Positions 1,700 to 10,108 of a stretch of 64,000 nt of DNA are shown here, one piece after another. Source of the DNA: a virus (taxonomy: Duplodnaviria > Caudoviricetes). Location: IMG/VR virus record IMGVR_UViG_3300031994_000022; one strand, written 5' to 3'. The notes beneath the pieces are model-generated. The model saw nothing but the letters and a program-made list of their open reading frames with translations, did not search any database and was not told where the DNA came from. The position numbers were made by a program, and so were the translations under genes. How positions within the stretch are numbered: the first letter of the stretch is position 1; each line of letters starts with the position of its first letter.

Positions 1700-3530
1700 C
1701 TTTAAAAATAACAAAACGCAGAGCAGACCTTTTACAATCTACTCTGCAACCGTAATCAATACGGTTCTCTCCTTATATGTGCCTCCATTGGACACTTCAT
1801 TGAGAGGTGTGGAGGCTTCTGTCAAAATGACCCGACGTGGTACGCATCAAAGTGAGAGGCGTGTCGGGTTCTGTCCAATATAAAAGGAGCTGTGTGTACC
1901 AGCTCCAATTCCTCGCAATATTGGCAGTAATTACAGTTTACTGCCGATAATTCCTTAGCGAGTCTCGGCGTTTTTCTTTTCAGATATCTGCATCCTAGTC
2001 AGGGTAAGACTGCCGCAGCTTACGGTAGAACCTCCACGTAAGAACCTGACAAACCTTACGCTTCAACGGTTAAACTTAACTAGTGAGTAATATTCTAACC
2101 GTTACTCGCGGTACGAAAATGTCACGAAAACTATATACTATTCGTGACACAATCTCAGCTCCTCCTACCAATAGGATAGGTGAGTAAGTAGATAATGCGT
2201 AGTCCCGGTGTTAACACATAACACTTACCACGACGGAGGCAGGATACTACGACTTACAATATCTGTCAGAGCGTACTCCACATGGAAGTCTGACAATCCC
2301 ATGCTTCACAGCAGATCCGCCAATACCCAAGGGCGAAGAGTAGTTTAAGTGCTTAACTCAGGCACAAACATTTTCAAACCGACCTTTTATATTGCGGTAA
2401 TCGGTCTCCGCATGGGTTCTGTTTATTTTGCAACTTTCATTTGATGGCTTATGGTAAGTTGCCACCTTTATACATCTCCACATTCACCGCATACCATCAC
2501 GGATTCCGCTTCATAGACATCTACACTTAGGCGGTGAACACCATGTATTGGCTCTGTTCTCGCTCCACTCTTGTGTCTTTACCACAGATTTAAAGTCTAC
2601 ACCTACGCTACTGACTACCAATATTTTGAATCGCTAGAAGTTTTAAGTCGTCCTAAAGACCATATGGTTATCCGATATTGCAGTGTTTTACAGATTCGTC
2701 ATCCAACCATATGAACACCTCTGGAAACGTGCCTCCTCGGAATAGGGCTACACCAGTACCATTACGCACCTACGTGTTTAGGTCTTTTCGTTGACCAAAT
2801 ATTAAAGCGACTCGGCGCGGATCTTCACCGCCATCGTGCTAGTTATAGGGAATTCGCCTCGGTTACCAACCTTAACGCCGCTTATAATAATCCACTTTTT
2901 ATTTGGAAGCGATGGGACACTTCGTTTGAATCACTAGGAGTTTTAGGTCATCCTAAAGACCGCTCGTAATGGGTTTAATGTCTCCATACCGACAAAAAGA
3001 ACGGCATTGATGCTGGCATCGCTACCGCTGAAAAACCTTTGGCTTTTCGTTCATAATCCACCGTTGTAGCATAGGTCGTGGGACACCTACCGCACCGTTC
3101 TTGGAATTTCTTTGTTGTGGGAGTTACCCACTTCATTATTTTTCCTCACACTTCGCCGCCACACTAAATGACTATAAAGGTTCTCACTTGAATTTTAAGG
3201 TGGACGAGATATTCCACCAGTAGAGTTATTGCGCATTACGGTAACTTCGCTTACCTCGGTACTGTCGGTTAAGGGAGCCGACTCCTATTGGATAGCTGAC
3301 AACATATCACCTATTGCCGAGCTTTCATGGTATATTTAACGCCCCCCACTAGGGAAAGAGGTGCTATCCGTTGTCCTCTTATATTTTACTGCCCTATCAA
3401 AACCATCATAGGACTCTTCACCCGGTCAATTTTTATTTTACCGACGAGTCAGAACCGTCACTCGTCATCTTCGCTCGGTCAGTTTTTATATTACCGACGA
3501 GTCAGAACCGTCACTCGTCTCATCTATTAT
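1700..3530 (-). ncRNA. Large structured non-coding RNA region: array of pseudoknot/hairpin modules
   Basis: ~1.8 kb with no credible ORF, visibly more GC-rich than the flanks, dense in stems, with duplicated modules carrying pairing-preserving substitutions. Strand inferred from G-U pairs and operon direction. Confidence 0.85.
3423..3519 (-). repeat. 53-nt-period tandem repeat (about 2 copies, plus a degenerate third at ~3380-3415)
   Basis: CCGACGAGTCAGAACCGTCACTCGTC at 3441 and 3494, each preceded by CGGTCA(A/G)TTTTTAT(T/A)TTA. Confidence 0.95.
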
Positions 3531-3584: not shown

Positions 3585-3612
3585 AAAAAAGACGACAAAT
3601 TAACGTCGTCTT
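3585..3612 (-). terminator. Intrinsic terminator-like hairpin after the portal gene
   Basis: Minus strand AAGACGAC-gttaattt-GTCGTCTT followed by a T run. Confidence 0.65.
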
Positions 3613-8804: not shown

Positions 8805-8876
8805 TAGCAGGGGTAGGAATTGCACCCACAACCTCCGGAGCATGAATCCGGCAAACGTCTGTCGTTATGCCCTGCG
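8805..8876 (-). tRNA. tRNA-Met(CAT)-like, atypical D arm, C1:U72 mismatch
   Basis: CGCAGGG/CCCTGCT acceptor, CCGGA-TTCATGC-TCCGG anticodon arm, GTGGG-TGCAATT-CCTAC T arm; D loop lacks GG. Confidence 0.7.
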
Positions 8877-9012: not shown

Positions 9013-9081
9013 TGAAAATGTAGGATTCGAACCTCGCCCCTACAGCCCAAGTGTAGTGTGCTACCATTACACCACATTCTC
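9013..9081 (-). tRNA. tRNA-Pro(TGG)-like, degenerate
   Basis: GAGAATG/CATTTTC acceptor, D loop AATGGTA, CTACA-CTTGGGC-TGTAG anticodon arm, AGG-TTCGAAT-CCT shortened T stem. Confidence 0.65.
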
Positions 9082-9172: not shown

Positions 9173-10108
9173 TTATTCAACTAATGAGCCATCAGGATTA
9201 AATACATAATTCTTTAGTCCAATCCTTACCTTACCAGTTACCATATAACCGGTACTATCAAAGTAATACCACTTGCCATCAACCTTACACCATTCCTTAA
9301 TCGGATACCATTGAGATTCCACACCTTCTAACCAGTATCCTTTATTATTACATTTCCAAGCATAAGTTAATTGATCCCAAGCACCATTCTTATCTACATA
9401 ATAAAGTTTTCCATCTTCGGCATAATTCTTCGACTTAATGAATTCATCAGCAGCCATATAACCCGAAGGTTTAAAATAATAATCAACTCCGTCTATAGTC
9501 TTCCAAGTGTTGACTGGATATGTGCCATTGCTATATACATACCACCATCCATTGTCATCATTCTGCCAACCAGATTTGGATTGATTCAGTTTCTTATTAA
9601 CTGCCTCACCTATCTGTCCCATACGACTATACAAATAATCGCCAGGACATGCCTTATTTGCAAAGTCACGATGAACAGTCATATTACAACCATTCTTGTG
9701 ATTTATTCTATCAGATTTATTATTAGACCATATCATTTTCTGTATTCCATTTCTCTTACATATGTCTGTACATAATTCAATAAGAGAAGAGTATACAGCT
9801 GAATTAACCGCATATGGATTTGTAGTATCTGATGCACATTCTATTGTTACAGCACGTTGATCATTTGCTTGATTTGAAGTACACTGAGATGCCTTATTTT
9901 CCTCAACATACATAGCAATTCTTCCATCTGTACCAATTCCATAATTGGAAGAAGCTCTTGCAGAAGACTTAGAAAATATACTTCCGCAAGTCTCTACAGA
10001 CAATTGCCCTACCATACAGTGGATTGAAATAGTATCAATACTATGATTTCGTTTTCCGTATGTATTAGGAGAGAGTGCTGTGTATTTAACTAACGAACTA
10101 TTACTCAT
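9173..10108 (-). CDS. N-acetylmuramoyl-L-alanine amidase with C-terminal cell-wall-binding repeats
   Basis: Amidase_2 motifs SIHC, SSNYGIG, TIEC, VHRDFANKACPG; repeats such as WKTIDGVDYYFKPSGYMA and KWYYFDSTGYMVTG. Confidence 0.9.
   Translation of the reverse strand: MSNSSLVKYTALSPNTYGKRNHSIDTISIHCMVGQLSVETCGSIFSKSSARASSNYGIGTDGRIAMYVEENKASQCTSNQANDQRAVTIECASDTTNPYAVNSAVYSSLIELCTDICKRNGIQKMIWSNNKSDRINHKNGCNMTVHRDFANKACPGDYLYSRMGQIGEAVNKKLNQSKSGWQNDDNGWWYVYSNGTYPVNTWKTIDGVDYYFKPSGYMAADEFIKSKNYAEDGKLYYVDKNGAWDQLTYAWKCNNKGYWLEGVESQWYPIKEWCKVDGKWYYFDSTGYMVTGKVRIGLKNYVFNPDGSLVE

Follow-up and report, generated by a model that had tools for sequence, protein, structure and literature searches.

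The stretch of DNA analysed here (the window, 64,000 nucleotides) is part of a 141.8-kb virus record, IMGVR_UViG_3300031994_000022 (Duplodnaviria; Caudoviricetes), that is estimated to be 95% complete. On its minus strand the gene for the terminase large subunit is followed by the portal gene, then by a gap of 1958 nt (3638-1681) that is poor in open reading frames (ORFs), and then by a gene of the family phrog_3313 (Table 1). The longest ORF in the gap is of 95 amino acids (aa) and lies on the opposite strand; none is credible, and the GC content is 0.42-0.46 in the gap compared to 0.31-0.37 in the flanks. An earlier note on this DNA, made from the sequence alone, had described ~1.8 kb with no credible ORF and higher GC, and this description is borne out. 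The same note had placed the stretch between portal and prohead protease genes; the portal assignment stands but the protease label could not be verified; phrog_3313 is a family without assigned function.

In this large phage of the gut or rumen the gap holds, on the minus strand, small-RNA cassettes that are independent, portable and exchanged horizontally. Of their units at least eight, from four families, are toxin-less copies of RNAs that in bacteria of the likely host lineage are sited just upstream of RNase toxin genes. The earlier note had seen here a set of antitoxin-like RNAs; homologues beside toxin genes are indeed found for four families and eight units, pairing TenpI with TenpN, CptI with CptN, abiF with Abi_2 and RhuM, and drum with PBECR4.

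Table 1. Features of the portal-phrog_3313 gap and its flanking genes, in minus-strand order.
Feature	Coordinates	Strand	Basis or remark
Terminase large subunit	7253-5208	-	phrog_2
Portal	5195-3639	-	phrog_2739, E 4e-79
Rho-independent terminator of the portal gene, bounding the RNA tract on its upstream side	3589..3612	-	sequence conserved in L001
TenpI-type repeats: units 3524-3472 and 3471-3419, diverged/partial third 3418-3366 (2.6 units)	3366..3524	-	homology, repeats
M2a, ~80-nt three-helix small RNA, nearly invariant	3290..3369	-	conservation across phages
H-type pseudoknot, A-rich linker	3178..3221	-	covariation and pattern scan
H-type pseudoknot	3054..3097	-	covariation; separate block in L004
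37-nt pseudoknot-like unit, copy 1 (duplicate spaced 300 nt)	2925..2961	-	also in L162, L163
37-nt pseudoknot-like unit, copy 2	2625..2661	-	repeat search
drum-like RNA #2	2426..2519	-	Rfam drum 26.4 bits, E 0.03
Single CptI-type pseudoknot	2371..2420	-	component match to CptI of L107, L110
Mobile module M13	2143..2194	-	91-95% identical in L014, L022; also L163, L178
drum-like RNA #1; 5' part common to all array-bearing relatives	1963..2071	-	Rfam drum 37.9 bits, E 6e-5
Internal terminator-like hairpin with U tract	1886..1906	-	terminator search
Two abiF-type hairpins, 1868-1830 and 1816-1780; 52 nt start to start	1780..1868	-	Rfam abiF
Terminator that follows the abiF pair and immediately precedes the downstream ribosome-binding site	1717..1748	-	terminator search
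phrog_3313 gene, >560 aa, family without assigned function	1680-1	-	PHROG match

The tract is a mosaic of exchangeable cassettes

Some 65 related loci (~65) were recovered from viral and metagenome collections by means of the portal protein. Among these the GC-rich, ORF-free tract is confined to relatives whose portals are at least 71% identical, where it measures from ~600 to 1958 nt, the tract of the window being the longest among the portal relatives; at the same site more distant relatives have either an AT-rich spacer of 185-260 nt or a homing endonuclease gene of the GIY-YIG/NUMOD1 kind. Comparison of blocks across ~15 related phage contigs reveals a mosaic with sharp junctions, in which whole blocks are present or absent and cassettes have been gained, lost, exchanged and, once, reordered; the reordering is in L021, where two blocks (M13 and the CptI-like unit) stand in inverted order. 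Identities are correspondingly uneven: in L021 the CptI-type unit is 98% identical (2412-2373) compared to 76% in the adjoining blocks and elsewhere, and in L022 an identity of 96% is found at 2622-2429.

Exchange also reaches phages that are far less closely related. Further phages were found with a 27-nt pattern from block 3385-3290; two of them, L163 and L162, have the same cassettes at this site although their portals are only 32-38% identical. Subsets of the families are present in other arrays, with drum and CptI together in L020, drum and abiF in L163, and abiF beside a tRNA in L173. The earlier note had preferred an array, with one large RNA as the alternative, and had named gain and loss of modules in related phages as support for the former; gain, loss, exchange and reordering of modules are what the related phages show in this interval. 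Among GenBank phages no DNA match was obtained at 1e-5, and at 0.01 there was only an abiF-like match of 50 nt, in MT835884.

Homing endonuclease genes occur at or near the site in several relatives, of the GIY-YIG/NUMOD1 kind in L007 (5178-6035) and L009 (9692-10735) and of the HNH kind in L001 (5172-6764). The gene in L007 lies directly upstream of the RNA array, and that in L001 follows the gene downstream of the tract. It is possible that such genes drive the exchange of cassettes.

RNA structure in the tract

The gap was scanned for an H-type pseudoknot pattern with A-rich linkers that had been tuned to take in the validated units; this replaced an earlier, stricter pattern which missed them. 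Seven such pseudoknots were found on the minus strand and one on the plus strand. Shuffled sequences gave 0.55 +/- 0.64, none of 100 shuffles reaching seven, and twelve coding controls gave 0-2. The minus-strand specificity of the folds is thus upheld, but the claim of at least 12 pseudoknots could not be established; ~10 can be upheld, whether from the pattern, from homology or from covariation. The z-scores of nested folds are exceptional (strongly negative) only at ~1660-2020 and 2080-2200, and the method, which is blind to pseudoknots, is not discriminating outside ~1660-2200. Since the mean z-score of the gap (-0.85) is hardly different from that of the flanking coding DNA (-0.33), thermodynamics alone does not carry the claim.

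Changes on both sides of a base pair are seen in TenpI, abiF and drum and in two further pseudoknots (3221-3178 and 3097-3054), and because the stems co-vary, these RNAs are maintained as structures. No covariation was found in block 3385-3218, because this block is too conserved. Of the duplicated modules reported earlier, the pair at 1781/1829 is confirmed and its copies differ by compensatory changes; the pair at 2625/2925 is likewise real (37 nt, 89% identical), as are tandem copies near the upstream end of the tract (52/53 nt at 3415/3468, 92% identical), but a duplicate at 2887/3053 was not found in the repeat search. The tract had also been described as one transcript, which is doubtful because of the internal terminator at 1906-1886.

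TenpI- and CptI-type units

Bacterial counterparts were sought in 300-400 genomes of the order to which Ruminococcus sp. AM36-2AA belongs, a prophage relative in that strain serving as the anchor. On the phage side, no TenpN, CptN, ToxN, Abi_2, RhuM or PBECR4 gene was found in the 95%-complete 141.8-kb record; the absence of a cognate toxin gene, noted before for the window, thus extends to the whole phage record.

Over 110 nt the repeats at 3524-3415 share 88% identity with two repeats in the bacterial genome G268 (E 4e-32); for a pair in G243 the figure is 82%. In both genomes a promoter, two repeats and a Rho-independent terminator precede an ORF of 157-159 aa, which is TenpN (NCBIfam NF047358, 157 and 153 bits against a cutoff of 90). 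Across eight units all cells of the hairpin pair (100%) and five of its seven pairs change on both sides; the proposed pseudoknot helix is invariant, which speaks neither for nor against it. The third phage copy, at 3379, is diverged and degenerate. Among the relatives only the window phage has the TenpI insert and, as there is no TenpN in the phage record, its TenpI is an orphan copy.

Genome G056 (L079:1440-1560) has a lone TenpI-type unit with a promoter, its stem being a further compensatory version. No ORF of the size of TenpN lies within 1.5 kb, and the unit may be an orphan or what is left of a decayed bacterial locus.

The CptI-type unit (2420-2371) has its loop, A-rich linker, second-helix arm and tail in common with CptI of L107 and L110, and in place of their first helix it has another pair of complementary arms; the BLAST match taken by itself is weak (21 nt, 90%, E 0.07). 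The relative L020 has a unit that agrees at 93-95% over 41 nt with CptI of L107 and L111 (E 2e-11). CptN itself is above cutoff in 24 of 301 sampled genomes, and tandem repeats (45-47 nt, ~2.2 copies) were recovered upstream of it in about a dozen of 29 loci.

abiF-type hairpins

The two abiF-type hairpins are the only matches to the abiF model (RF03085) in the 141.8-kb phage, at 32.1 and 19.2 bits. Their identity to bacterial elements is 81-94%; on the same model these elements score 34.5-43.4 bits, the two upstream of Abi_2 scoring 36.7 bits. Bacterial homologues lie directly upstream of Abi_2/AbiD genes in L081 and L082 (Abi_2 E 1e-51 to 1e-54; AbiD by PADLOC downstream of an abiF element, E 2e-102), and others are next to genes of the RhuM family (PF13310), in L160 (2492-3547) and L085 (1507-2635), with a RhuM E value of 3e-104. 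The bacterial element most similar to the phage units (94%) is a single hairpin that has a promoter and immediately precedes a RhuM gene. The element is a two-helix hairpin with a conserved CACGCCUCU-type loop. In ten copies all cells pair (100%) and five of nine pairs change on both sides, compared to 25-40% pairing in slid controls; compensatory changes are also seen among the phage relatives.

RNAs of the abiF type were also observed inside or beside tRNA clusters, in a bacterium (L080:815-1956) and in phages (L021:95-304, and L173), the copy beside the tRNAs of L021 scoring above threshold. This suggests the existence of mixed RNA counter-defence islands.

drum-type RNAs and PBECR4

Two units resemble the drum motif (RF02958), which also scores 32.7 bits in the relative L001 and 33.3 in L004. 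A prefiltered genome search with the drum model missed both of the phage matches that cmscan reports. Among the Rfam families that the earlier note had named for a search, abiF is matched below threshold and GOLLD and ROOL are not matched; the match to drum is likewise sub-threshold. The second drum-like unit has 81-86% identity to bacterial RNAs with drum scores of 43.0 and 41.6 bits, and its homologue in L077 has a PBECR4 gene directly downstream. In the anchor's family drum is above threshold in six of 151 genomes, and in all six it is then followed by a PBECR4 gene on the same strand; PBECR4 is directly downstream in seven of nine bacterial drum or drum-like loci. This gene order is the layout of a type III toxin-antitoxin locus. 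The long-range helix of drum shows double-sided changes at four of its five pairs in 15 phage and bacterial sequences, and the motifs UGAAG, GGAG and GAAAGAAA are common to the phage and bacterial RNAs.

The PBECR4 proteins of L093-L098 and L077 are nucleases of the Barnase/EndoU/ColicinE5-D/RelE-like kind. No description of drum-PBECR4 as a toxin pair was found in the literature searched, and a preprint on bacterial tRNA mimics (skipping-rope) does not cover drum.

Other cassettes

Several cassettes gave no toxin-linked counterpart in the bacterial genomes sampled. In L006 and L020 both helices of the pseudoknot at 3221-3178 are compensatorily swapped, and the second helix of that at 3097-3054 changes from CCAC/GUGG to CCUC/GAGG. 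The small RNA M2a is 91-95% identical in phages with portals only 32-44% identical. In the clade of L165 it stands alone (as a 92-nt sub-block) at another locus, ~7 kb from the portal and upstream of a tyrosine integrase, and in L173 the sub-block is followed by an abiF-like unit. No Rfam family corresponds to M2a, and a plasmid copy of it gave only terminator-hairpin noise. That copy, in Clostridium argentinense plasmid pRSJ17_1, has compensatory changes in two helices.

The solitary M2a of L165 (4983-6221), and likewise of L167-L170, L174 and L176, lies in a 456-nt gap, just upstream of the tyrosine integrase gene, in phages of 80-160 kb; it might be the mark of an attachment site or of an integration target. 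The 344-aa ORF beside it had been suspected of encoding a homing endonuclease, a candidate that was rejected in favour of the integrase. The plasmid copy is a stand-alone M2a-like gene (L179:3003-3120) with its own terminator, at an un-annotated spot between two hypothetical genes in the conjugation region.

The 37-nt duplicate at 2625/2925 had been likened to ToxI. ToxN is present in 44 of 301 sampled genomes, and ToxI repeats (34-42 nt) were recovered upstream of it in 19 of 30 loci fetched; none of the repeats from these 30 loci has a significant match to any phage version of the array, and the likeness to ToxI is therefore unsupported. One copy of the duplicate lies in a 171-nt insert which, in the window phage and L001, splits a stretch that is contiguous in L004, L014 and L002. 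In L004 this stretch scores 32.5 bits on GP20-b (RF03003), against a gathering score of 36.2; Rfam lists GP20-b as cis-regulatory. The corresponding pieces in the window are 2994-2969 and 2797-2766, for which a permissive Rfam scan reports nothing.

A BLAST search with 2445-2075 against 401 genomes returned nothing. The region 3000-2520 gave two matches of 31 nt in the same genomes, which were dismissed as chance since they are inside ORFs, and a match in L092 was likewise judged to be chance.

Discussion

To our knowledge, there is essentially one case in which a phage mimics an RNA antitoxin, that of PhiTE and ToxI, and it came from laboratory escape mutants. In work attributed to Blower et al. 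from 2012, this Pectobacterium phage is said to carry a toxin-less pseudo-ToxI that replaces the decaying host antitoxin, by which means abortive infection is escaped. The array described here is like pseudo-ToxI in that it consists of phage-encoded, toxin-less copies of antitoxin RNA. It is unlike PhiTE, which has one system and one repeat family, in having at least four unrelated RNA families and ~10 more structured units, in that no unit of the array matches the ToxI repeats recovered, and in that the set varies between related phages.

In type III systems an RNA holds the toxin inactive and the toxin is released when host transcription stops (PMC13728456). An abortive-infection system of this kind would fire once infection has halted host transcription and the short-lived antitoxin RNA is lost. 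Copies of the antitoxin RNAs would, however, be transcribed from the phage; for TenpN and CptN the toxin itself would then cut the phage precursor into units that bind it, so that the toxins would stay sequestered and the phage transcripts survive. The presumed targets are TenpN for the 2.6 TenpI units, CptN for the one CptI unit, Abi_2 (AbiD/AbiF) and RhuM for the two abiF-type units, and PBECR4 nucleases for the two drum units; the other cassettes (the A-linker pseudoknots and the M2a small RNA) are probably decoys for further partners. For three of the four families (TenpI, CptI and abiF) inhibition of the toxin by RNA is known or demonstrated, and the frequencies of CptN (24/301) and ToxN (44/301) indicate that targets are common in the likely host lineage.

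Each family can be compared with its characterised counterpart. The phage TenpI and CptI units are like those of TenpIN and CptIN loci (NF047358, NF047359; PMC12283969) in repeat sequence, in length (52-53 and ~45 nt), in their hairpin (for CptI, pseudoknot) fold and in the A-rich linker; unlike those loci the array is without a toxin gene, and the CptI unit is single compared to ~2.2 tandem copies. RCd22, the AbiF antitoxin of a Clostridioides difficile prophage, binds AbiF, neutralises it in trans and needs its stem structure (PMC12373285). As with RCd22 (PMC12373285), the two abiF hairpins of the phage are ~52 nt apart and are followed by a terminator, with a conserved loop and stems free to co-vary. 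RCd22 is, however, directly upstream of its abiF gene, which it attenuates in cis, whereas the phage pair is without Abi_2 or RhuM and is sub-threshold. For the drum motif RF02958 an association with a nearby protein was noted by Weinberg et al. 2017 (PMC5737381); in the loci studied here this protein is the PBECR4 nuclease encoded directly downstream. The phage copies resemble it in their conserved motifs and covarying long-range helix; in contrast to bona fide drum RNAs they are divergent, below the gathering score and without a nuclease gene.

The decoy principle is itself not new: PhiTE pseudo-ToxI, orphan protein antitoxins and phage tRNA arrays are all examples of it. Phage tRNA arrays and orphan DarG-like antitoxin proteins (PMC13728456, PMC11825919) similarly supply spare copies of the molecule that a defence destroys or depends on, and they too are clustered in a variable locus, sometimes beside a homing endonuclease. 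There the molecules are tRNAs or proteins, whereas here they are several families of antitoxin-type RNA. In the literature searched, no description was found of a multi-family phage array of antitoxin RNAs that exchanges its cassettes.

That the tract is an array of independent cassettes which includes orphan homologues of toxin-linked RNAs seems to us very probable. The interpretation of these RNAs as antitoxin decoys is well supported computationally, and the proposal of the earlier note that the phage has collected antitoxin-like RNAs against several toxins gains support to that extent. From the sequence, the array probably does function as an anti-defence decoy, but we hold this with only moderate confidence because rescue and expression are inferred, drum is linked to PBECR4 by gene order and the tract has a late-operon position.

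A number of observations weigh against a decoy function. No canonical minus-strand promoter was found downstream of the portal terminator, and the tract lies in a late structural operon when a decoy expressed early would seem more effective. The phage units of two families score below the Rfam gathering thresholds, abiF at 32.1 and 19.2 bits (threshold 37) and drum at 37.9 and 26.4 bits (threshold 43); the inhibition of PBECR4 by drum is deduced from gene order only, and the CptI-like unit is single rather than a tandem array. Several bacterial copies of the abiF type (L076, L080, L083, L084 and L086) adjoin no recognisable toxin, and abiF-type RNAs may therefore have other roles. Finally, the bacterial genomes sampled contain nothing that corresponds to ~70% of the tract, and portal homologues were absent from the five that matched best.

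Alternatively, the RNAs could serve the expression or assembly of the phage itself, as a long regulatory leader for the downstream head gene, as small RNAs directed at mRNAs of host or phage, or as partners of phage proteins, their likeness to antitoxins reflecting ancestry only. The tract is just upstream of a head gene and a terminator comes directly before the downstream ribosome-binding site; a block of L004 comes near to the cis-regulatory GP20-b (32.5 vs 36.2 bits), and M2a, found beside an integrase or on a plasmid, is without a link to toxins. However, relatives with at most 61% portal identity are without the tract and keep the same gene order, which shows that the operon does not need it. 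Modules are also found at other genomic sites in other phages, and eight units match RNAs with a toxin-gene context in bacteria, the cognate proteins being absent from the phage. We consider such a role unlikely.

It could also be that the site is a recombination hotspot that passively gathers fragments of mobile toxin-antitoxin and RNA genes, which would be functionless for the phage. The homing endonucleases at the same site in L007 and L009, and after the next gene in L001, would fit with this, as would the rapid turnover of content and the degenerate third TenpI unit. Against it, no toxin gene remnants were found anywhere in the tract, compensatory changes keep the stems within the phage lineage, modules are 91-96% identical in phages with portals 32-71% identical, and the same families recur in independent arrays. 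This explanation appears distinctly unlikely. A long, GC-rich, ORF-free, phage-borne tract adjoining the portal gene might also bring to mind a single giant ornate RNA, GOLLD/ROOL-like or associated with packaging, whose peripheral domains vary; the block split by the 171-nt insert relative to L004 and L014 (2994-2969 plus 2797-) could then be a nested domain. This is so improbable as to be effectively excluded by the turnover of whole blocks between ~600 and 1958 nt, the inverted order in L021, the presence of cassettes in distant phages, the internal terminators and the blocks that in bacteria are found singly, each with a promoter and terminator of its own; furthermore, no GOLLD, ROOL or other large-RNA model gave an Rfam match, whether at gathering thresholds or with E values allowed up to 10, and no long-range covariation was found across the tract.

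If the RNAs do act as antitoxin decoys, then phages that infect gut and rumen anaerobes in nature maintain changing arsenals of orphan antitoxin RNAs from several families, the cassettes of which are traded between phages with very different structural genes, and RNA-based counter-defence would extend to the TenpIN, CptIN and AbiF/RhuM systems. Drum-PBECR4 would then stand out as an unrecognised RNA-protein toxin pair, a function would be suggested for an orphan Rfam motif, and the bacterial neighbours of each cassette would offer a way to new RNA-inhibited toxins. This would have a bearing on phage host range in the rumen and gut. More tentatively, the array might be a natural catalogue in which each of the ~10 other cassettes (among them 3221-3178, 3097-3054, the 37-nt duplicate, 2194-2143 and M2a) is directed against a different unrecognised RNA-inhibited toxin, and in which drum-PBECR4 is a new, widespread, type III-like family of toxin-antitoxin or abortive-infection systems; taken as a whole we see this as conceivable rather than probable. 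Were it true, phage arrays could be mined systematically for new defence systems by way of their decoys.

Other RNA features of the region

At the Rfam gathering thresholds the sole match in the window is a tRNA outside the gap. It lies at 8805-8876 on the minus strand (51.8 bits). The non-coding gap around it, of 595 nt and upstream of the terminase gene, also holds on the same strand a tRNA-like sequence at 9013-9081 (28.4 bits, against a threshold of 29). In the structural region of the more distant relative L008 there is a group I intron (9577-9833) that scores 67.7 bits, above threshold.

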